DNA of 64,000 nucleotides from Octopus vulgaris. Taxonomy: Eukaryota. Of the stretch, positions 361 to 63,265 are shown piece after piece. The position numbers and the translations under genes are program-made. The notes beneath the pieces are model-generated. The model saw only the letters and a program-made list of their open reading frames with translations, was not told where the DNA came from and did no database searches. The stretch lies in contig OX597830.1 in the NCBI GenBank assembly GCA_951406725.2, positions 51,584,001 through 51,648,000 on the forward strand, written 5' to 3'. Positions within the stretch are counted from its first letter, which is position 1. The number at the start of each line of letters is the position of its first letter.

Positions 361-628
361 ATATGTTAATCCAAACATGAAAACACAAAGAGAAAACACG
401 ACGTGAGAATGTGGAACAAGTATAGTGTTATTGGACGTTCAGGAAAGGAAGGAAAGAAGGAGGATTTAACGTTTCGAGCGGAGCTCTTCGTCAGAAACAT
501 AGGAAAAGGAAAAATCCAAGGAAGGGAAGACATCGCCAACGATACACACGCGGTCACATTTTGAATAGCCGGAAGGGAATGGGTGAAGAAAAAGTTCTTT
601 CAAAGAAAAGAGAGTGCAAGAGAATGAG

Positions 629-16068: not shown

Positions 16069-16243
16069 CATTATTTACATTGTTTATATTATTTACATTT
16101 GATGAATATTTGTCCTCATCTTGTTTGTTGTTAACACAACGTTTCGGCTGATATACCCTTCAGCCTTCTTCAGATGTCTTTCAGAAATTTCGAACCTGGG
16201 TTCTCATCCCTAAAGTATTTTTCTATCTTATTATCATTATTAC

Positions 16244-16966: not shown

Positions 16967-18387
16967 TCTACTGCACTGTGTCGGAAATTAATGACTGCAC
17001 ATTGTACCGAATAATGATGTTCTGAATTGTGTTATCTAATCTGTACTGTACCCTGCGTCAGATAATTATGAAACAACTAAGGTTATATTCTATACTGTAC
17101 TCTGTATCAGACAAACAATACTGTATTGTTTGTGAAGACACACTATACTGTACAGGGCGTCGGAGAAATATATTTTACAGAAATGTTTGCCAGATACTAT
17201 ATTTCTTACCGTGCGCCGGAACGAAAGTGCTTTAGTGTGTTGAAGAAAACATACTTAGATGTACTTTGTGGAAAATGCGTTCAACTAGTTACTGCCATAC
17301 TTATACTTTCTGCTCGAAGGTTATCCTAGAGAGACGGCAATGAAGCAATGAGTCCAATATGATAACTTATGTTAGGAAGGAACCAGAGAAAGGTGTGATT
17401 AGTCTTAAGCAGAAAGAACTCAAGAGATAGCCGAGGGGCATGAGCAAGAGAATCTCAATCGGACAGATGAAATGATGACGGCAAATAGCAACAGATCAGC
17501 AAGGGATTCGAAATGCTACCGAGTCACCTCGACAACGGACTATCCTGTTGGCGCGTCTTTTTAAAAAGGCTTCAGCTGCAAGGGCTACCAAGTCAGCTCA
17601 ACAACGGACAATCCATTTGGCGCGTCTTGCCAAAAATGTCTCAGCTGCAGACACTCCACAAGAGCACAGAACCCTAAGGAAGCGTAATGCTGTAACTACT
17701 GCTGCTGCAAGGGCTTCACAGTCAGCGCAACAACGCACAGCCCGGAGGGCACGTAATGCTAAAACTACTGCAACTGCACGGGCGTCAGAGTCACCAGCAC
17801 AGCGCATCACTCGAAGGAAGCGTAATGCTGATACTACAAATACTGCAAAGGCCGCAGAATCACCAGTACAGCGCAGAAATCGTCAGGCTTTGACTGCTGC
17901 TTTAATGACCAGTGCAAGGGCTTCAGAAACGGATGAACAAATGACAATGCGACTTCAGACCAATGCAAACTTGAAGGCTCTGCGTAGGAGAACATGAAAA
18001 CCATTGTTCAGTCGGTGGGCCTTTTATCATACATGACTTTCATTGAAAAAAGCTTCAATGCGGTCAGGCATTACATGTAACATAACTACATGCTACAAAA
18101 CGATTCAAGTAAGATATAGAATTCCTAATATCTACTGCAACTGCGATCGCATTTCATGGACTTTCATTTATTACTAACTGCCAAATTTGTGTTAAAAAAA
18201 CAAACTTTATTTATTACTTAGTTTGCTTCATACCATATAATAAATTGCTAACAAAATTGTTAATTATACATTTTACGTTTATCAACTTGAAACGACTTCT
18301 AACTGCGAGCTAATTCAAATTAAACCGTCCAAAGGAGTGCGCCATTATAATAAATTACCCCGTCCAAAGGACGGGGGCGTTTGCTAG
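16967..18387 (+). mobile_element. Non-autonomous Helitron
   Basis: 3' hairpin CCCCGTCC-aaa-GGACGGGG (18358-18376) followed by CTAG|T (18384-18388); candidate A|TC 5' end at 16967 (less certain); internal STPR repeats. Confidence 0.7.
17479..17997 (+). pseudogene. STPR-like 23-aa repeat coding remnant (Helitron Rep-helicase N-terminus)
   Basis: ARASQSAQQRTARRARNAKTTAT / ARASESPAQRITRRKRNADTTNT / AKAAESPVQRRNRQALTAALMTS / ARASETDEQ..: exact 23-aa period; stops upstream, no Rep or helicase downstream. Confidence 0.7.
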
Positions 18388-19452: not shown

Positions 19453-19657
19453 GACCGCGTGTGTACCATTGGCTATTTTTGCCCTCCGTCTTCCCTTACT
19501 TGGATCTTTCCTTCTCCTATGTTTCTGACGAAGAGTTCTGCTTGAAACGTTAAGTCCTCCTCCTTCTTTCTTTCCTTTCCTGAGCGTCCAATAACACTAT
19601 ACTTGTTCCACGTCCTCGTGTTGTGTTTTCTCTTTGTGTTTTCATGTCTGGATTAAC

Positions 19658-22872: not shown

Positions 22873-23620
22873 TGTTATTTATTTGCCACCAGGACGCAGG
22901 AGTGAGAGAGACGATACAAAGACAAAGTGTGGGACTTTACGTATAATGAAATGATAAATTAAATATATAGAGAAAAAGAATAAGTATGCACGGTGTACAA
23001 TGAAAAGGAAGGGAAATATACATAGTATACAAAGGTTGAAAAGATGGGGGAGTACCCTCTCCCCCTATCTTTCTTCTACTCAGATGTCTATACTTAGAGA
23101 GTTAACATCCACACTTGCCATTTTTGCAGCTTACACCTTTCAATAAACTCACTCGAGGACAGCACTTCTCTCTCCACTCTCAATTTCCTTTTCAAGTAAA
23201 ACTTGAGAAAGTCGATGAGGCCTGTGGAAAGAGGACTGTATCTCTCATCATGTCTTTCAATCTTGTCCACCAGACAAACTCTTTCGACACAGACACCAGA
23301 CAAAGGAAAACAGCTTTGCCTGCCCGGTTGAAGGAGGGCGGCAAGGCAATCATCATTATGGACTCGGTCAATAGAGGGATCTGTCCCACATGTTCGACAC
23401 AATCCCACATGTCAGCGATGCTCGGACACTTAACGAGTGCGTGCAAGATGGTTTCGTTACTCTGTGCGCATCTCGGACAAACCTGTCTGACAGCGTATCC
23501 GTGCCTGTAAAGTTTACCTCGAACCGGTAGCGCTCCCATCCATAATAATTCTCGATCAAAATATCCCCCGGAACAGACTGACCCAGAGAACGTCGTAGCA
23601 CTTCTCCGCCACTTATCCTC
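22873..23620 (-). mobile_element. Tx1/L1-clade LINE 3' end (zf-RVT CCHC domain), frameshifted, tailed by (CAT)n
   Basis: GALPVRGKLYRHG..CPRC..ETILHALVKC; AATAAA then (CAT)n at 22778-22872 on the minus strand. Confidence 0.8.
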
Positions 23621-23640
23621 TATAAATTGCTAAATCAGAA

Positions 23641-24436
23641 CAAGGGGCTAAACACAGAGGGGACAAACAAGGACAGAGAAACGGATTAAGACGATTATAT
23701 CGACCCCAGTCCGTAACTGGTACTTATTTAATCGACCCCGAAAGGATGAAAGGCAAAGTCGACCTCGGCGGAATTTGAACTCAGAACGTAGCGGCAGACG
23801 AAATACCTATTTCTTTACTACCCACAAGGGGCTAAACACAGAGAGGACAAACAAGGACAGACACACGGATTAAGACGATTATATCGACCCCAGTGCGTAA
23901 CTGGTACTTATTTAATCGACCCCGAAAGGATGAAAGCCAAAGCCGACCTCGGCGGAATTTGAAATCAGAACGTAGCGGCAGACGAAATACCTATTTCTTT
24001 ACTACCCACAAGGGGCTAAACCCAGAGAGGACAAACAAGGACAGACACACGGATTAAGTCGATTACATCGACCCCAGAGCGTAACTGGTACTTAATTTAT
24101 CGAACCCGAAAGGATGAAAGGCAAAGTCGACCTCGGCGGAATTTGAACTCAGAACGTAGCGGCAGACGAAATATCGCTTAGCATTTCGCCCGGCGAGCTA
24201 AGGTTTCTGCCAGCTCGCCGCTTTAATTACAAATATACAACTCCATTGTACTGAAAGCATAAGGTGGGTAGTCGATGAAATCGACTCTAGTGCGTAACTG
24301 GTACTTTTTCAGTCGACCTCGAAAGGATGAAAGGCAAAGTTGACCTCGGCGGAATTTGAACTCGGAACGTAGCGCCAGACGAAACACTGCTAAGCATTTC
24401 TCCCGACGTCGTAACGACTCTGCCAGCTCACCACCT
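23641..24436 (-). mobile_element. SINE trimer (184-bp units) plus an adjacent monomer
   Basis: Junction gaaatacctatttc at ~23800 and ~23984; full head at ~24220. Confidence 0.9.
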
Positions 24437-25729
24437 TACAAATATATATTATATTATTAATGATTTCTTTATCTATATATTATAGTAATATGAGTTACGT
24501 AAGCGTGAGGGAAATTCAAATACAATGAGTTCTTAAACAAGATGCCTTTTACTCCAACAACCCTCAGTAAGGAAGTTAGTTTAACTGTTTAATAAATAAA
24601 TAAATCTTGTTTTATTGTTGAAGCTGAAGATATGTAAGGAGCTGAATGGTTGGTTTTTCCTTTCATACCTGATTATATTTGTTTTATTATTGTTATTATC
24701 ATTTACAAATGTTTTCCTTGTTTCGTTGACCTTCAGTTCATGAGATTGCTGGCTCTTATAAAATAATGCACAACTATACTCTTGACAAAACAACTTTATA
24801 GTTAACCTTGAAAACTGACCAATGAGAGTTGACAATTCCTTACTTTCTAGCTGACACACTCAAATAGACACACATACACGTGCGCGCCGTGTACACACAT
24901 AAAAATACATACACACATGTATATTTACATACACAGGTACGTACATAGATGCATAGACATTGATATTTTTTACTTGATTCACACACATACATACAATGGA
25001 AGTCGTAAAAATGAAAAGATTTCCAGTAGATGGGAAATGAAATCGGTCGTAGGATGGCGGTTTCGATTCCCAAACCGGGCGTTGTGAGTGTTTATTGAGC
25101 GAAATGAAATTGGTTTCTGTAATCAAGTGAAATGGGAAAAGTGGGGTACCCGGGAATTTAGTCGCAAAAGTACAATTTGAGGGTCAATGTTCCAAAACTA
25201 ATAATTATTTTTATAATAATAAGTGAGAGAGGGTGAAAAATATATATACTGCGGAACATTTTTAGTCTGTTTACCATTCTGTTGAAGTAGTTGAAAAAAA
25301 GGGCCACTTCCGAGTAGCGTTTGCCTAAGTCTGATTCTGTTACGGTGCATCTTTGGCGAGTATTTTCTGCTATAGTTTCTTGTCAACCAAAACATTGAGT
25401 ATAAAATTTGGTAGACTGGAATCTATGGAAAACTGTTAAATGACATGTAATGGGGTCTTTTAATTTTTTTTTTATCGTACAATTCCTTCCTTATTCAACA
25501 CGGCCATCTAATCTGTGGGTGCTTTCATCACACACCTTTCTGTCGCAGGTAATCTGGTTTTAGGATATTTCTTCCCTTCATACAAACAATCCCAGAGTTT
25601 CTGCCAAACGGTTATGGACGTCGCATTTCTTCATGTGATTAAACCTGAAGGCATATAACATTAAACCACTCTTATTGAAACATAATTTCTCTGTAAATTG
25701 ATCTTACCGCAATAACTATCAGCGTAACA

Positions 25730-43859: not shown

Positions 43860-46712
43860 GCGTACTGACGAATCTGCCAGCTAGCCACCTTACCATCAAT
43901 AATAATAATCCTTTCTACTAAAGGTCCAAGGCCTAAAATTTGGGAGAAGCGGACTAGTCGATTACATGACTCCAGTGTTTCACTGGTAATTAATTTGTCG
44001 ACCTCAAAAGGATGACATACGAAATCGACCTCCGGAGAATTTGATCTCAGAAGATAAAGACGGACGAAACGTCTCTAAGTATTATTTTACCAGCTCGACG
44101 CCTTCACAATAATAATCTTTTCTACTAAAGGCACAAAGCTTGGAATTTTAAGGTAGCGGACTAACCGATGACATCGACCCCAGTGTTTCACTGGTACTTA
44201 ATTTATCGACACTGAAAGGATGAAAGGCGAAGTACCAGTTACGGTGGATCTTGAACTCAGAACATAAAGATGATAAATATGCTACTAAGCATTTCACACG
44301 ATGTCGTAACGATTCTACTAGCTTGCAACTTTAGCCAATAAAAATGATATTAGGTATATGTAGAGGGGACGAGTTTGAACATCAAGGTTTCCGGTATAGG
44401 TGGTGAGTGCGGGAAATGGGTGAACGCATATTGGAGGACAAGTTTTCAACGTTGAATAGACAGAAAGGATGAAAGTAAGTAAAATAGAAATAATAATGAT
44501 CCTTTCTACTCTGGACACAAGGCCTGCAATTTTGGGGCTCGGACAATTACTTCGTCCCCAGAGTGCTTATTTTAACTTGAGGTTATTTTATCAACCTCGA
44601 AATGGAAAGTCGACATCGACGGAATTTGGACTCAGTTTGAGGGATGGGGGAAGGAAAATCGATAATAGCACCTCCAGTACTTCAAAGTTACGTTATCGAC
44701 CCCGAAAGGATGAAAAGAAACTTCAATATTGGCGGGGTTTGAAATCAGAACGTAACCAATTGTAATATATGGTATTCAATCTTTTGTCCGAGGCAGTTAC
44801 CACTCTGCCAAGTTCGCTACCTTTCTACAAGAGAAAGTAATCTTTTCTACTATATGCCCAATGCATGAAAATTTGGCGGGAGGGGAGGGGCAAGCCAATT
44901 ATGTCGATTCGGTGCTAGACGGGTAATTATTTTGTCAACCAGAGGAGGATGAAAGGCAAAGTCAACATTACAGGAATTTGAACTCAGCCTATAAAGGCAA
45001 TTTTGCCAACAATGAGAGTAGTTACTTTTGTATTATTTATATATTGTGCCAATACTTTAACACAATTGGAACTTCAATTCAGAAGAAATCTGAGAAAATG
45101 CAAAGAAAATAAGCACAATAATAACAACGTTTAAAGTGATTGTGGTTTTGAAAAGGTTTCATAGAATTGTCTCAATGTCGATATCTACCCAGTTCAAATT
45201 AAACGAATATTTCATGAGAAATTTATCAATATATCTATTTTTCAAACCTTTATTCCCATCACTATGAGTGTGGGTGTGTATGTATTTATATATTCGTACA
45301 TACATATATTGTTATCCGATTTTACATGGTGAATAGTTGGACAAAAGTGTTTGATATTTTTTGTTTTACGAAGAATTATAAAGGAATCTATAGAGAGCAG
45401 ACAATGCCTTTGAGGCTTACCAGTTTTGAGTTTAGCACGTGTAACGCATCTATCGGCCAACGGAAGAGTTGAAAACAAAACATCTGAATACCAAGGAACA
45501 TAAGAGCAACCAGTAAGGGAGAACTTCGGTGATGGCTACACATAGTAGAAACGCCAGCCAAATCTTCGTACAAAATTTCATCTTTTTGTTTAGATATGAT
45601 GGTCAAATTGAACAATGCAGTCGTAGAAATGGAAGCAGATGAGATGATTGAGACGGATTACCTCTCATTATAAATCTATCATTGTTATCAACAATAAATT
45701 GCACAGTATCTATGATTGTACAAAAATAGACTGAACAGTAAAAAAAATGTGCTATATGTCTACAGTGTCCCACTGTATCACATGTGTTCCCTCATTGTAT
45801 TACATTCATATAGAAATATTTGCACAATATAGACATTGCAGTATGTTGCAGAGATTTCATCAGGGGCCTAACCGTTTGAAGTGGACCTGTGGATAAATAA
45901 TAACCCTTTCTAATTTTTTCTAGTTTCAGCGCAACACCGGCGGTGGGTGAAGGAAAATCGATTCAATCGCCTCCGGGACTTCAATGTTACTTTGTTGACC
46001 CCGAAACAATGAAAGGCAAAGTTGACCTCGGCGATATTGAAACTCGGAGTGTACATTCGGAAGAAAAGCCGCTAAGCATTTCACCCAGCATGATAACGAT
46101 TCTTTTCTACTCTAGACACAAGGCCCGAAATTGTGGGGGAGGGTGTTAGTCGATTAGATCGACCCCAGTACGAAACTGATACTTAATTTATCGACTCCGA
46201 AAGGATGAAAGGCAAAGTCGACCTCGGCGGATTTTGAACTCAGAACGTAAAGACAGACGAAATACCTATTTCTTTACTACCCACAAGAGGTTAAACACTG
46301 AAAGGACAAACAAGGACAGACAAACTGATTAAGTCGATTATATCGACACCAGTGCGTAACTGCTACTTATTTAATCGACCCCGAAATGATGAAAGGCAAA
46401 GTCGACCTCGGCGGAATTTGAATTCAGCATGTAGAGGCAGACGAAATACCGCAAAGCATTTCACCCGGCGTGCTAACGTCTCTTATTTCTTTATTGCCCA
46501 CAAGGGGCTACACAAAGAGGGGACAAATGAGGACAGACAAACGGATTAAGTCGATTATTTCAACCCCATTACGTAACTGGTATTTATTTAATCGACCCCG
46601 AAAGGATGAAAGGCGAAGTCGACCTCGACGGATTTTGAACTCAGAACGTAACTGCAGACGAAATACTGCTAAGCATTTCGCCTGTCGCGCTAACGTTTCT
46701 GCCAACTCGCTG
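43860..46712 (-). mobile_element. Clusters of co-oriented major SINE copies (43860-45000 old and degenerate; 45900-46712 younger multimer)
   Basis: Repeated atcgaccccgaaaggatgaaaggcaaagtcgacc blocks. Confidence 0.85.
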
Positions 46713-49490
46713 CTTTTATGTATGTATGTATGTATGTATGTATGTATAAAACGTTTCTTTCAGTTGCTTGGATCGTGTAAATTGCAATCGGACATTACAT
46801 GATCCCCCAAATTTCCACACGTGTAGAGAATTAAGTATTTCAATATTCACCTGTAGGCATTCTTGGCTAAATATGCCTAGAATATTTTGACATGCTGCAC
46901 ATCACTAATCCTGCTGCGAAGGCATGAAGGCTTTACTAATGCATTTCATTATTTCTGTAAAGCTTCAGAAATTTCCCGTCAGTTCAATAGGTAGTAGGTA
47001 AATATTTAATTTTGACTTATATCGCTTCAAGAAAGATAACGGCTTTATTTGAATAACTGAAATCCACGTGCCTCCTTCGCCACTGTCACTTCATTAACCA
47101 CTCCCGTCAATAGTTCGAAGAAAACTAATACAATGGCTCCATGATAAAATTACAATGACGTCACTAGATCAACAGCAAATCAATGTTCAACATATTCCAG
47201 TGACGTTATTCAACACCTACAATGTTATCAGTAATTCTACTTTACACACCCATAGAGTCGGGTGCAGGCTAAGAATTAGGGCTTACAAATGAACTAATTC
47301 TCATATGAAGGAGAGCTCTTGGGAACTCGGCCAGTATCCGGAAATTAGAAGAATGATATCATAAAGAAAAAAAACTAGAACCGTATACACTCTCATTTGA
47401 AAGGAATTTATAAATCTTTTTTTTTTTTTACAGAACCGGATTTATTTGTTCAATTAGAGAAAAAGCGCTTTAATTGAGTTTTGGGGGTTATCTCATACCC
47501 GCCATGATCAGAATTATGACACGTGGGGAGTCAGCCTCACAAATAGGTGCTCGACATATCTTTTTCTTCCTACGCTCTTTTTTTGTTTTTCTTTTGACCA
47601 TTTCGATATTTTGTTTGTATGAGTGGTGGGAGGTTATTGTTATGCAACTTGGTCAGTGTTCACTCAGAATAGTTTGAGCCAGCTCCAGCCAGAGACTACA
47701 AAATCAAGAAAATACACCGTTATGTAGCTGATGAGGATATCTCTTCCATCTTTGCCTTGGCCCTTGGCAATTGCAGTTGCATCAATTGATAGGATGCTTT
47801 CAAAATATTTATATTGCTTATATTTTACTGTGCATAAGCGAGCATTGTTGATCTGGGTGAGAGATATAAAATAGATTTAGAGTAGAATCTCCCAAGTTAT
47901 TATACTCACTGGTTACGATGCCCCAAGTTATTCCATTCACTGACACTCCATATTTAATTTAATTTGATTTATTAACATTTCAGGGTTCTCTTTTTTTGCG
48001 TTTTTTTTCATTAGAATTAGAAATCTATATGAAAATTGTTCTAATCTTTAAGGTTATAATTTTGATTTATTATAATTTGTTGTCTTATGATATCAAGTAG
48101 ATATCGAGTCTTCAGAGTAAAGCTCGGACGATATTGTGCAGTAGATACCCCTGAGTGTATTGTATCAGTAATTAGGTTTATTTGTTAGAAGTAGCAACCA
48201 AATCTTCCTCAAATCAAAGTTTTGTTATTTTAAAGAAGAAAGAACACAAGAGATGATATAACAAGCAAATCAAAGTTTACTAAGAGAGAGCCTCTGTTAG
48301 GCAACTTGACTTGTTAGAATTAGCAACCAAATCTTTCTCAAATCGCAGCTTTGTTTTCTTAAAATATAGTTTTTATTTAAAAAAAAGACGAGTTTTTTCT
48401 TATTACTCCTGGTCATATGTCTGCTGTAACAGGATAGATACGTAACTAAACCACAGCCCCCGCCACAACAACAACGTAACAGACGACAGTTCCTCTTACG
48501 TGAGTATTGGATTTCATTAGTGAAAAGTGGTATTGTTATTACAACACTGACCGAGGTGGTCAAATAGACAAACAGGTTTCCGTCATTTATTGAAACTCTA
48601 CTCAGGTCTACGACAATTCTGATCGCTTTCGCAAATAAGATATGATACATACTTTAAATTTGATGAGCCTCAAGAAGAAGAGATGTAAATATGAACAACA
48701 CATTTAGAAATATCTATTCTATTATTTCCATGTGATCGTTTATTACTTTTTGTTTGGGAATTCACACACGTTATACAATGCAAATTAGTATAAAAGATGA
48801 TATAAAAACAGAATAAATACAACGCTGACAAGAACGGAGAAGGTCAATAGTCGATAAGGCGTCAAATAATAGAAAGCAGCAAAAGTTGATTGTCAAGTGC
48901 ATTGTTATTAAAACTTGTGGTTTGTTTATTAAGACTTTCAATGTCATTACTGTCAGTTTTTGTACTTCCTTTTTAAAGCAGTGCACAATGGATTAGAGGA
49001 CTGCTACCTCGCTTCCACCACACCATCCCACCACTTTCATCTATAATCAGATGTGGCCTGTTATTTCTCAAAGATAAATGATACATTGACAAAAGGGACA
49101 ATTGCAGCTCCCAGTGACACGTTCCAAATATTCACGTAATGTCAAGAACAATTTTTTTTTGTAGATCCATGCAATAATAATTAAGATTCTATGAAAGTGA
49201 TTGAGAAAAAAAAATTATCTGAATATTTCAAGGTTGCCTGTGTTATTGACGAAAGGCGACTTTAGACATTGATACAAATTCCAATTTGGCAACAATCTCA
49301 GGACAGCATTGGTAAACATTGTACCCTAAAGAATAAGTCAGCTTTCAAAACAAGAAAATATCAAACAATTGACGACCATTAAGTAATCAAGAGTTGGAAT
49401 ATATTTTATTTTTCTCGAGTATTGGTCACTGCTTATCTACGAGAGAGACTGTACCTTATCACGTGACTTGTTGAATAACAGACTTCAAAG

Positions 49491-49906
49491 CGTAAAGTAT
49501 AATAGCCATCTCAATATGGCTAACCACTAAGGGTGGGTGTTACTGTAGCTTTTAGCCCCAGGAGATCATCATCTCCAGCTGGCTTTAGGCACACTATCTA
49601 TGCCCTTGTGGTATTTGCAAAGGGAGGTCATCCCTCTCTCGTAAACCTAAGTGATACGCACGGACTGCAGTTTCGAGGTATTTGCCTCTTGTCAACGCAC
49701 GGTAATCACCGGTTTACGATGAAAAGGAAGACTTGTTTGCAAATACTTATGGGTTTTTCTAGTAACTTCCGTCACCATAAGGGCACAGATAGTGTGCCTA
49801 AAGCCAGCTGGAGATGATGTTCTCCTGGGGCTAAAATCTACAGTAACACCCACCCTTAGTGGTTAGCCATATTGAGATGGCTATTATACTTTACGTTGTA
49901 GAGCGG
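49491..49906 (-). mobile_element. Palindromic ~405-bp element with 122-bp inverted arms and a central hammerhead motif
   Basis: Arms 49491-49612 and 49774-49895 (4 mismatches); direct repeat agacttcaaagc 49480-49491 / 49907-49918. Confidence 0.8.
49657..49701 (-). ncRNA. Type-I hammerhead motif with palindromic stem III; core box altered (TTGACAA)
   Basis: cgtgcg-TTGACAA-GAGG-caaata-CCTC-GAAA-CTGCAG-TC-cgtgcg. Confidence 0.7.
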
Positions 49907-50229
49907 AGACTTCAAAGCAAATTCTTAAAAAGGTGGTGCGGCACGACTGGAGAGCCTTTCAACCTAATATCGTTAACTAGTGCGCTAAATAACAGCAATA
50001 AAATTATCCTAAGTCGTCAGATCAATTCCTCAGCAGAATCCCACTTTGTGACCCTTGAGCAAGGTACTTAATTTCATGTTTCTCCTGTTTACTCAGCTGT
50101 AATGAGTACCTGTTAGATGCTGGTGCTGCAGCATCTAAATGGTGGCAGTTTCATGTTAGCAACGTACAGAGTCCTAGTGGTGCATAAGAGTGATGGTCTT
50201 CTCAAGAAAACTATAGGTGTTGATAAGGA

Positions 50230-50705
50230 TGAAGTAACTGGTCTCTTTCGGAAGCCTTTCAGGCCGCTTCTATAATGGATAATTTCCAGAAATCCTCAGC
50301 CTGGTAATGCAACTGAAGGAGCACTACCGGTTCGAGCTAAACTCTACAGACACGAAAACTATTATATACGTGTGGAAGATCCAGAAGGGACATCTAAACA
50401 TCGGCATTAAATCGAATTTTAATGCTCAAACTGGTAGGTACTGTCAACTTCCAAATATGCCATCTTCAAACTCGCGAGCAAAAACATTCTACTGTACCAG
50501 TTTAATATTCAGAATTCCTCAAGTGTTCAACTGCTTGTCCAAAACGATTATGAAAGGGACCTCTACTGAAACTTTCAAAAACATCATTAGATGAACTCCT
50601 AACGATACCAGACCAACCAACAAACTATTCAAGGATACAATCAGGTGAGGTCAGCAGCCACAAACGCGACCATCGACCAACTTTCAATCATAAACCGACA
50701 AGAAA
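50230..50705 (+). mobile_element. CR1/L2-group LINE 3' coding end
   Basis: IIYVWKIQKG..TGRYC..PQVFNCL..FKNII..IPDQP motif typical of mollusc CR1-like C-termini. Confidence 0.7.
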
Positions 50706-50852
50706 ACTAAAAAAAAAAGATTAGATTAAATTAAGGCGGTGCTCCAGCATAGCCGCAGTCCGATGATGGAAATCATTTAAAGGAATAAAAGACAGAATTA
50801 TTTTTATGTTATTGTCATCATTATCACATAATAAACAAGTAGTCTGCAACAA

Positions 50853-51013
50853 TAGGTGCAGGAGTGACTGTGTGGTAAGTAGCTTGCTTACGAAACACAT
50901 GGTCCCAGGTTCAGTCGCACTGCATGGCACCTTGGGCAAGTGTCTTCTTTATAGCCTCGGGCCGACCAAAACCTTGTGAGTAGATTTGGTAGACGAAAAC
51001 TTGAAGAAACATT

Positions 51014-51064
<51 letters not shown>

Positions 51065-51533
51065 GGGCTCCCAAATAAGGATGCCAAGTGCTAGGGACAC
51101 AAAAAAGGGATAAATTCATCGAGAGTGAAAATCAAAAACAGTTACCATTAACGATATATCCCGGACTGATCAGTTTCTACCTCTTTCTAGCAAAACAGAC
51201 AGAATATGTTTGCTAAGGCCGATTTCATCAGCGAGACGCCTTTGTTAATACGAGATGCACAGAGCGTTAGACCATGTGTTGATCTAAACAATTTGTAAAC
51301 CTTAACTTTTCAAACTTCTGCGCAGACGCAAAATCTACCCGGTGATATAGGGCATGCCGGGAAGAAAAATTACGAACAAATCTATCAAGTAATATGTGAA
51401 TATAATCAAAAAAGGGTAATAACATAGATTACTACCAGTGGCCCAGCACAAAAGACGAATTAGTCATTAGACAAAATATTATTCATATAGAAATATGTGC
51501 ATCTCGAATTAACAAAGGCGTCTCGCTGATATA

Positions 51534-51600
<67 letters not shown>

Positions 51601-52028
51601 CAGCGAGACGCCTTTGTTAATTCGAGATGCATATATTTCTATATATTTTCTCCCACTTTTTCTTCGGTTGGCCTGCTCGCTTAGCCAGCGGGGTGGCGTC
51701 ATTCGAAGGCTAAAACAATGCGAACGCATTGTGACCAGCGATGTGTAACAACATCTGATAGTCTGGTCGGTCACGTGATATCACGTGACGTGATATATAT
51801 ATATGTATGTATTAAGTGCGTGTATATGTTTGTGTGTCTGTGTTTGTCCCCCCAACATCGCTTGACAACCGATGCTTGTGTGTTTACGTCCCCGTAACTT
51901 AGTGGTTCGGCAAAAGATATTGATAGGCTTACAAAGAATAAGCTCTGGGGTCAATTTGCTCAACTAAGGGTGGTGCACCAGCATGGCCACAGTCAAATGA
52001 CTGAAACAACTAAAAGAGTAAAAAGACT
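50853..52028 (+). mobile_element. Second-family SINE split in its (TA)n by a nested Penelope-like insert (51060-51650) and a short retroposon tail (51664-51795)
   Basis: Head at 50853-51015 and tail at 51810-52028 match the intact copy at 33170-33622. Confidence 0.75.
51158..51237 (-). ncRNA. Type-I hammerhead motif with perfect core and long stem II
   Basis: gtctcg-CTGATGA-aatcg-gcct-tagcaaa..tttgcta-gaaag-aggt-a-GAAA-CTGATCAG-TC-cgggat. Confidence 0.7.
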
Positions 52029-53398
52029 AACACAGAAGGTCGTACTGTCACGCACTGACTTATTTCCTTCCGCCTTAGGTCCTGAGATGTGACAGGGTTA
52101 GCAGTTCCACTACTTGTCAGTATTTTGGCTAAACCGCCACAATTTGGTAAATACTTACAACCCTAGAATCTGTTTACTTGTAGCAGAAGGAAACTTTTCA
52201 TTGTAAGGTTGTAAGTTCCTGGAAACAAGGTATCTTTGTTAACCAGAATGTGAAAATGAGACGCTCCACTGGATTACAGGTAATAAAATAAATGTATATA
52301 ACAATTAACAGAGCGGTGTGGTAAAATCACAACTTAAAAGCTATGAATTATACGCTGACAGTTAAACAAATAAAGACTTGTAACTCTTATAAGAACCTAT
52401 TTGTCAGCGACATAGTTTTTTTTTACGCTCCATTTCAAGGAAACATGACCAAATTATGACAAACATTTCAGCGAGTAAGCGTATGATCAGTCATGATGGG
52501 ACACCACTTTAAAGAGTTTAGTCGAACAAATCGATCCCAGTATTTATTTTTCAAGTCTGGCTCTTATTCTATCGGATAAATTTCTTGACCTGCTAAGTTA
52601 CGTGGATGTATACTAACCAACACCGGTTGTAAGAGACAACCCCAATCCGAAAAATCACACGCATAGATATGCACATACATACACACACATGAATATGTGT
52701 GTGTGTGTGTGTGTGTACGACAGGCTTCTTTTATTTACCGTCTACCAAATGTATTTACAAGACTTTGGTCAGCCCGGGCCAATAGTAGAAAACAGATCAA
52801 GGTACCATTCGATGGAACTGAACGCGAAACCTTGTGGTTGAGAAGCAAGCTTCTTACCACACCGGCACGCCTACGCCTATGTATTGGTTTCAGATTTTGT
52901 CACAAAGCCAGCAAGTTCGGGAGAGAGCGGTGGTAAGTCTATTATATTGACCCCAGTGCTCAACCGGTTTTTATTTTATCGACCCCGAAAGGAAGAAATG
53001 AAACTTCGTTGTTTGGTGGAACTTGAACTCAGAGCGCAAAGACGGCCAATTTGTCGCTAAGCCTTTTGCCCGACGTGCTAACGACCGTGCAAGCTTGCCA
53101 CCCTCCGGAGCCTAAGTTTATATTATAGTAACCTATTTAAACATACTTACTCTTCCTTCAAAACTAATTAATCAAGGACTAGTGACAGATATAATTCCAA
53201 TACGTTTTAAAACAGTGTTGTGCTCTATTTCCCCCATATAAATATCTATGTTCTTTCTAACACATTTGGGTTAGCAGACCCAAAATGTCTGCTGTACAAA
53301 TATCGTTCTTGTTTTTGTTGTTATTGTTATTGTTCGTGTTGTTGTTCACGTTGTTGAGTAACACCAGGTCTACCGTGATCGAAAAGTGCTAGAAACAG

Positions 53399-62014: not shown

Positions 62015-62612
62015 AAGGCGGCGAGCTGGCAGAATCGTTAGCACGCTGGGCGAAATGCTTAGCGGTATTTGGTCTGCCGCTACGTTCTGAGTTCAAATTC
62101 TGCCGAGGTCGACTTTGCCTTTCATCCTTTCGGGGTCGATAAATTAAGTACCAGTTGCATACTGGGGTCGATGTAATCGACTTAATCCCTATGTCTGTCC
62201 TTGTTTGTCCCCTCTATCTTTGGTCCCTTGTGGGTAATAAAGAAATAGGTATTTCGTCTGCCGCTAGGTTCTGATTTCAAATTCCGCTGAGGTCGGCTTT
62301 GCCTTTCATCCTTTCGGGGTCGATAAATTAAGTACCAGTTGCATACTGGGGTCGATGTAATCGACTTAATCCCTATGTCTGTCCTTGTTTGTCCCCTCTA
62401 TCTTTGGTCCCTTGTGGGTAATAAAGAAATAGGTATTTCGTCTGCCGCTAGGTTCTGATTTCAAATTCCGCTGAGGTCGACTTTGCCTTTCATCCTTTCG
62501 GGGTCGAAAAAATAAGGAACAGTTGCCTGGGGTCGATATAATCGACTTAATCCGTTTGTCTATCTTTGTTTGTCCTCTCTGTGTTTAGCCCCTTGTGGGT
62601 AGTAAAGAAATA
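62015..62612 (+). mobile_element. Major SINE trimer with a single 18-bp TSD
   Basis: Junctions at 62248 and 62432 (184-bp period); TSD gatacctcagagaag(t/c)ac 61997-62014 / 62613-62630. Confidence 0.92.
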
Positions 62613-63265
62613 GATACCTCAGAGAAGCACTTTGACTCATGTGGAGTTGCTCGGAACCATCGGCTGCCTTGCAACGGCGATTATTTTCGACAATCCACTT
62701 GGCAGACCCAAAACATGTCAGAGGTCTCAGGTCAAGCTGAGCGGGATTTTGGTGATTCCTTTCTTTTGCTGATGTTAATTTTCCTTGGAATTACTCTGTT
62801 GACTGGGGCAAGAGAAATATCAACAATTTGTGGAATCTTGCACCAGCTATGTCCATCATCAAGATTGCCCCACAATCACTGGATCGGGAACGAAATTTGC
62901 TTAGTGGGTGCAAATCCAAGTCCAAAATATTTGCAAACAAGGTTCTAACGTCCTTTAATTTTGTTTTTCTTTGAGAAGAAACCTAACTTCAAGCTACGTT
63001 TTACAGATAACTGTTTTCTAGACCTGAAAAAAGTAAGTAGGTGTGTAAATTTTGATTTTGCGCCTACAAACACCGCCCACAATATTCCTTCTTTGAAAGT
63101 CGGACAACTCTTTTATTTCTAGTGTCTGCAACGTGGCTATATGCTATAAACAATTAATATACTGTAAATTGAAATGGAAAACGATAATGCATTACGTTGT
63201 GTCAGCACAAATAAAACGCTATAACGAGAATGTCACTTTACTTTTCTGATGTCTGTATATGAACA

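Follow-up and report, generated by a model that had tools for sequence, protein, structure and literature searches.

Penelope-like elements (PLEs) leave a recognizable signature at their insertion sites, consisting of truncated tandem copies, an adjacent inverted copy and a one-sided tail of 30-40 bp (Craig et al., 2021; PMC8557442). A PLE protein has been shown to cleave the two strands of the target and to extend them, and two internal reverse transcriptase (RT) start sites bracket the tail (Frangieh et al., 2024; PMC11167929). Craig et al. also note non-autonomous Chlamys elements arranged head-to-tail, and thus non-autonomous riders of this machinery are already known. PLEs carry hammerhead ribozymes, among which a U3-A8 core pair has been described, and pairs of hammerheads lie 100-700 bp apart on opposite strands (Cervera and de la Pena, 2014; PMC4209133). 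In an anole PLE, swapping the 3-8 pair partly rescues cleavage, and PLE insertion in vitro is reported to be unaffected by ribozyme mutants (PMC11167929). Hammerheads are also found in the retrozymes of animals; of nine Xenopus retrozyme dimers, eight are reported not to cleave in vitro (bioRxiv 10.64898/2026.07.22.740005). In the studies cited below, the case for PLEs mobilizing animal retrozymes rests on co-occurrence and repeat similarity; here we describe a family in Octopus vulgaris whose insertion scars point in the same direction.

Results

The window analyzed here, a 64-kb stretch of the O. vulgaris genome, contains a palindromic locus that the original prediction had described as a viroid-shaped element with a hammerhead at its apex. 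Its parts are all present. The minus-strand rod has arms of 122 nt (49491-49612 and 49774-49895; 97% complementary), and further inner pairings, such as GTATTTGCAAA/TTTGCAAATAC at 49611-49621 and 49736-49746. A 12-bp direct repeat (49480-49491 and 49907-49918) brackets the rod, and an 11-nt overhang (49896-49906) is present on one side. When folded, the minus strand indeed forms a rod-like structure (-292 kcal/mol; z = -30 against 100 shuffles). The locus contains no ORF of at least 120 aa and lacks the RT and GIY-YIG domains of an autonomous PLE, and the 64-kb window holds no second copy of the element. The features of the locus are listed below; unit positions are numbered from the predicted cut with an accuracy of about 2 nt, since the reference begins with a unit of 357 bp.

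49480..49491, plus strand: left copy of the target-site duplication, 12 bp; its last base could equally be the unit end
49492..49775, minus strand: 5'-truncated monomer copy of about 0.8 unit, from unit ~243 via the cut site (0) to ~171
49611..49746, minus strand: irregular stalk prolonging helix I (the inner pairings), intrinsic to the monomer; its core-proximal pairs are counted in the alignment
49657..49701, minus strand: type I hammerhead motif with a 6-bp helix I, predicted from motif and covariation
49707..49720, minus strand: empty target site of a Tx1-like LINE and predicted transcription start region
49762..49775, minus strand: remnant of an snRNA-type promoter-like motif, whose first four bases (ATCA) are missing at the inversion junction
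49774..49906, plus strand: second, inverted 5'-truncated copy forming the right arm, unit ~50-183
49896..49906, plus strand: overhang of 11 nt, the shortened beginning of the family's ~46-nt tail
49907..49918, plus strand: right copy of the target-site duplication

The window element consists of two head-to-head truncated copies, and hence its long arms are the overlap between them. The left copy shows 95.8% identity to the monomer of an array on C4 and stops at the 'short' 3' end of the family; the long end of the locus lies at unit 183, versus the usual ~220. The two copies meet at a 2-nt microhomology (49774-49775). A 21-mer spanning this junction matches the 2.8-Gb genome once, at its own locus, versus 675 matches for a control 21-mer from the normal unit. 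Moreover, about 60 nt of the unit are missing from the rod, and its promoter motif is not intact. The rod is a single insertion of two oppositely oriented partial copies and not the mobile unit itself; its shape represents no novel type of element and is ordinary for a Penelope-type insertion, and the 11-nt overhang is a shortened Penelope 'tail'. The idea that the rod or viroid shape is the element is therefore not supported, since the junction is unique and arm lengths vary as they do among Penelope inversion products. The window copy is likely dead, a transposition dead end: the promoter motif is cut and a single ribozyme remains in less than one unit (0.8), short of what an active retrozyme locus holds. 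Its proposed inactivity is thus retained on the grounds of short length and the cut promoter motif, but not on those of the hammerhead core, from which it had originally been deduced.

A dispersed repeat that recurs in tandem about every 184 bp is also abundant in the window (23640-24450, 46100-46720, 62015-62616 and elsewhere). Open frames matching the Pfam families STPRs and zf-RVT, at 17479-17994 (plus) and 23195-23629 (minus), are probably transposon remnants. An (AT)n tract lies within perfect inverted arms of about 25 bp at 51505-51624 and gives rise to spurious Rfam miRNA matches.

We searched the 2.8-Gb genome with the element and scored the best 40 of 3710 first-look candidates. At C4:13.62 Mb (L026) the unit is repeated head-to-tail with a period of 355-357 bp, with one hammerhead per unit and nine hammerhead sites; dispersed copies exceeding one unit also exist. 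The monomer is short and non-coding, shows no LTR structure, and lies between target-site duplications longer than 4 bp (about 7-15 bp). It is highly self-paired, both when folded as a linear molecule (z = -4.4) and as a circle (z = -6.0; 61% paired), and the inner pairings noticed at the window locus are a family-wide feature of the monomer. Contigs from four runs presumed to be RNA cover the unit, and start, cut, strand and circle are not readable from contigs of this kind. As judged from its DNA sequence, in which form it is known here, the family belongs to the non-coding animal non-LTR retrozymes, a class whose definition includes circles, and carries a predicted hammerhead. Two loci (L067 and L090) contain another tandem unit, a distant relative of the first, whose hammerhead-like motif has the core CCGAUGA/CCGAUGC and a palindromic helix III.

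The insertion footprint was examined in a position-ordered sample, in which the first 30 matches of the control 21-mer correspond to 26 insertions. Besides the window locus, an inverted 5'-truncated partner was found in 13 of these 26, which our script classed as divergent inverted pairs and in which the shorter segment measures 128-337 bp, and in two more that it missed, as the internal stalk makes their segments overlap; by this test, no inverted partner is present in the others. While the 5' ends are scattered, the 3' ends are confined to two fixed positions near 174 and 220, about 46 nt apart, so that a one-sided tail results, of which the window locus has just 11 nt. In the position-ordered sample 34 of 43 segment 3' ends fall at unit 165-178 or 214-226; among 35 similarity-ranked loci, 51 of 59 segment ends fall at 169-177 or 216-226. 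Inverted pairs make up 22 of these 35 loci, a set biased towards the shape of the window copy, and 14 of the 22 have one arm ending near 174 and the other near 220. Arm lengths differ between loci, target-site duplications in non-repetitive flanks vary between about 7 and 15 bp, and nine of the 26 position-ordered insertions adjoin (AT)n.

The two arms of a locus resemble each other (95.5% identity) more than they resemble other loci (92.4%), and this holds for 28 of the 29 loci compared (four of 33 were dropped as out of register); the window arms have three minority alleles in common. The notion that the arms derive as a rule from different parent copies is therefore not supported, L051 being an exception. 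The arms start at unrelated positions, and thus simple fold-back does not explain them. We infer that two primings on one template lineage account for both the similarity of the arms and their unrelated starts.

At the window locus, helix I of the predicted hammerhead pairs 49696-49701 with 49657-49662 on the minus strand. The core UUGACAA (49689-49695) is followed by a 4-bp helix II with a 6-nt loop and then GAA, helix III is the palindrome ACUGCAGU (49664-49671), and C17 lies at 49663, which places the predicted cut between 49663 and 49662. Searching 47000-53000 against Rfam (E <= 10) returned no match to a hammerhead, only microsatellite-driven miRNA noise, and the ribozyme call rests for this reason on motif and covariation. 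In a 24-row alignment, picked to span variants (one row covers just part of the structure), 91% of cells pair and both partners vary in eight of 30 pairs, among them 3-8, two in helix II and two in the palindrome of helix III. The covariation score was reached by 0 of 500 shuffles, a control that ignores relatedness. Positions 3 and 8 change together in this alignment (U-A 14, C-G 9, U-G 1); 61 motif rows, comprising regex matches only and with a few loci counted twice, gave U-A 42, C-G 14, U-G 5 and C-A 0. The switch at 3-8 may have happened just once or a few times within a set of related subfamilies. Since UUGACAA is the majority core of the family, with U3-A8 in place of C3-G8, it is not a sign of inactivity. 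Of the claims made for the hammerhead, the type I motif is thus supported by its conserved core, one per unit, and by covariation in the family, though not by Rfam; the reading of TTGACAA as the mark of a broken copy does not hold, this being the commonest core, in which 3 and 8 covary. Our literature search found no cleavage assay of a U3-A8 hammerhead; among the articles it listed, PMC4209133 alone mentions this pair. The lowest-energy fold of the isolated motif (-21.3 kcal/mol) lies 3.6 kcal/mol below the active fold (-17.7), and the helix III palindrome self-pairs at -11 kcal/mol; these modelled energetics and the self-pairing palindrome would suit cleavage as a dimer.

Two autonomous PLE families are candidates for the machinery that moves the unit. 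One is very young, all 150 scored matches being 99-100% identical, and its tandem unit of 4.4 kb has a 784-codon frame for RT and GIY-YIG, the GIY-YIG part of which scores just below the Pfam cut-off and, in one fragment, above it. The other has a 781-codon frame. In both, the hammerheads are of the U3-A8 type with a palindromic helix III, there are two 3' ends, and the flanks are (AT)n. Their DNA shows no resemblance to the monomer, and hence we regard them as candidate drivers and not as parents: three loci of the young family showed no significant similarity (best E 0.36), nor did 30 GIY-YIG loci (E >= 4.1). Since no autonomous PLE with significant DNA similarity was found, it is the footprints that point to the kind of driver. 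Two other leads were discarded: CTCGT, which the tails of the unit and of both PLE families have in common, is too short a motif to carry weight, and a body common to L038, L053 and L060, at first a candidate for the autonomous parent, proved to be a LINE. In the young family, the coding region of L144 (373-9901; C9:10.67 Mb) and L146 is divided between overlapping frames of 446 and 784 codons, a pattern suggestive of programmed frameshifting or of an intron. In the window, motifs resembling minimal hammerheads, with C3-G8 cores and a palindromic ACGT helix III, are located at 468-494 (minus), 16138-16173 (minus) and 19524-19551 (plus) and are probably PLE terminal repeats.

The LINE common to L038, L053 and L060, which diverge from the unit at 313, measures 5.3 kb and has two ORFs, with a zinc knuckle in ORF1 and APE, RT and zf-RVT zinc-binding domains in ORF2 (Pfam), and a fixed target. 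The label 'Tx1-like' is presumptive and refers to this architecture; a protein homology search with the LINE returned homologues without clade names. We scored the best 40 of 153 candidates of a search with the LINE and fetched the 30 best loci. In 27 of the 30 the LINE passes straight into the unit, a short way 5' of the hammerhead, and one more has only the upstream half and the duplication, so that 28 occupy one fixed unit site; the remaining two (L067, L090) lie at the equivalent position of the second hammerhead-like tandem unit. The 5' junction was seen in 28 loci, of which 24 show the upstream half of the unit, mostly with a locus-specific duplication of about 14 bp; L067 has the duplication in the second unit, and L065, L076 and L090 have none. 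Where the 5' end was seen, the LINE is mostly full length (L061:1155-6437, L062, L063, L094-L113). Such locus-specific duplications of the unit's own sequence on either side of the LINE identify the unit as its target. Moreover, across 26 loci the 3' ends of the LINE are 96.6% alike versus 74% for the downstream targets, hence the insertions are independent and targeted. The corresponding site in the window copy is empty. Our literature search found no Tx1 element that targets a retrozyme or a hammerhead.

The LINE site also appears to coincide with a start of transcription. The motif ATCAGT is found at -57 to -59 in 20 of 20 U1 genes. Counting from the start of the LINE target, 46 of 49 unit matches, the second family included, have ATCAGT or ATCAAT between -57 and -61; nine of the 49 are units of one array, eight of them with ATCAAT. 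The LINE site is thus a predicted snRNA-type start, the putative promoter being a short positional match of 6 nt. In the array at C4:13.62 Mb, eight of nine units have ATCAAT and not ATCAGT. Two individual loci deserve mention. The inverted arm of L063 has a U3-A8 ribozyme and the copy beyond its LINE a C3-G8 one, so that this locus mixes two subfamilies. At L076 (C2:52.66 Mb) a LINE is truncated against an inverted tailed arm, its far end lies at 174 and the upstream target half is absent; it is as if PLE machinery had moved a joint transcript of LINE and unit, although a later deletion may also explain the arrangement.

Discussion

Taken together, we consider it highly probable that the window insertion consists of two opposed 5'-truncated retrozyme copies, likely written by a PLE reverse transcriptase and endonuclease. 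Tandem copies would be transcribed from an snRNA-type promoter inside the unit, and RNA of unit length would be released by the hammerheads, which probably act as dimers paired via the palindromic helix III; this RNA may circularize. In an AT-rich target the PLE protein would then nick the two strands at points about 12 bp from each other, and each nick would prime cDNA at one of two template sites separated by about 46 nt, the template being either the same RNA or sister transcripts. These cDNAs would stop at different points and join at a microhomology, leaving back-to-back arms, a one-sided tail and a duplication.

Other explanations have to be weighed against this reading. The insertion footprint equals that of PLE ends, and Xenopus retrozymes are reported to resemble pLTRs (bioRxiv 10.64898/2026.07.22.740005); the 355-bp unit might thus be the detached pLTR of an unfound autonomous PLE and its copies 5'-truncated ends, the more so as genome searches that score the best 40 candidates could miss a rare parent. 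Long copies, though, continue at their 5' side into a further unit and not into an ORF, a pure array exists, the sole shared body found within the unit is the LINE flanked by a duplication, and the ribozyme has the canonical 6-bp/4-bp geometry versus the minimal PLE form, so that we regard this origin as unlikely. It is considerably less probable still that the palindromic rod is itself a mobile, viroid-shaped element, despite its very stable fold and the occurrence of several loci with similar junctions (unit ~240-250 with ~40-60) in a set selected by similarity. The window junction is unique where a replicon of unit length would be multicopy, arms vary and are missing from about half of the insertions, and the rod itself is incomplete in both its unit sequence and its promoter motif.

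Just as improbable, in our view, is that the machinery of the Tx1-like LINE moves the unit in place of a PLE. The LINE does lie inside the unit, and the two could be co-transcribed, but the unit is the target of the LINE, with locus-specific duplications, LINE ends are much more alike than the targets downstream of them, and only one of the 26 position-ordered insertions contains the LINE; the inverted footprint with two ends matches PLE families instead. Least credible of all is a MITE or another DNA transposon with long terminal inverted repeats, to which inverted arms and a flanking duplication would at first sight point: instead of fixed terminal inverted repeats and a fixed short duplication we found arms of varying length, asymmetric ends, arrays running head-to-tail, truncation at the 5' side and duplications that differ between loci. 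The last three of these observations agree with the original prediction that the locus is a non-coding retroposon, most likely mobilized by a Penelope-type RT, and no MITE.

A wider scheme may be put forward tentatively, with the balance of probability somewhat against it. The unit would be the hub of a three-layer parasite system, in which a hammerhead RNA driven by an snRNA promoter is pasted by Penelope enzymes via twin priming from two sites, a Tx1 LINE settled at its start takes over the promoter and the ribozyme-cut 3' end, and LINE-plus-unit transcripts are in turn moved by Penelope enzymes, of which L076 would be an example. Regardless of this scheme, the footprint names two template positions (~174 and ~220 nt past the cut) that are testable with purified PLE protein. 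The presence of C3-G8 and U3-A8 ribozymes in one family background provides a natural comparison. Additionally, U3-A8 copies would escape descriptor or Rfam screens, and repeat annotators may label loci of this kind MITEs.

Like the Tx1-clade LINEs Tx1 (in Tx1D), Keno (in U2 genes) and Tx1-Mar, the LINE described here is an APE-RT LINE that occupies one site of a multicopy repeat with a duplication of about 14 bp (Kojima, 2015; PMC4494074). It differs from them in that its target, at other copies of the family and not at the window copy, is a hammerhead retrozyme at a predicted start site. A compensatory U3-A8 core is common to our family and to the hammerheads of the Schistosoma PLE Cercyon (Cervera and de la Pena, 2014; PMC4209133), but the Cercyon motif is a minimal PLE hammerhead, whereas helix sizes are canonical here and both core types occur in one family. 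With insertions of endonuclease-bearing PLEs, as described by Craig et al. and Frangieh et al. (PMC8557442; PMC11167929), the family shares 5' truncation, partial tandems, an adjacent inverted truncated copy, a one-sided tail, AT-rich or microsatellite targets and a hammerhead upstream of the RT start sites; unlike them, the unit has no ORF, its tail is ~46 nt long versus 30-40, and the whole unit measures 355 bp. Li, Clavereau and Pollet (2026; bioRxiv 10.64898/2026.07.22.740005) argue from co-occurrence and pLTR similarity, and no pLTR parent was found here. Our family resembles the animal non-LTR retrozymes described there and by Cervera and de la Pena (2020; PMC7229834) in its non-coding monomer (170-400 nt in those retrozymes) and the single type I hammerhead that this contains, in occurring as both tandem and dispersed copies, and in a GC content under 50%, duplications longer than 4 bp, a self-paired fold and the presence of PLEs in the same genome. 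The words 'inverted' and 'opposite' do not occur in PMC7229834. What sets the octopus family apart from these retrozymes is the U3-A8 core in most sampled copies and the full PLE footprint of its dispersed copies, with an inverted partner, two fixed ends and a tail.
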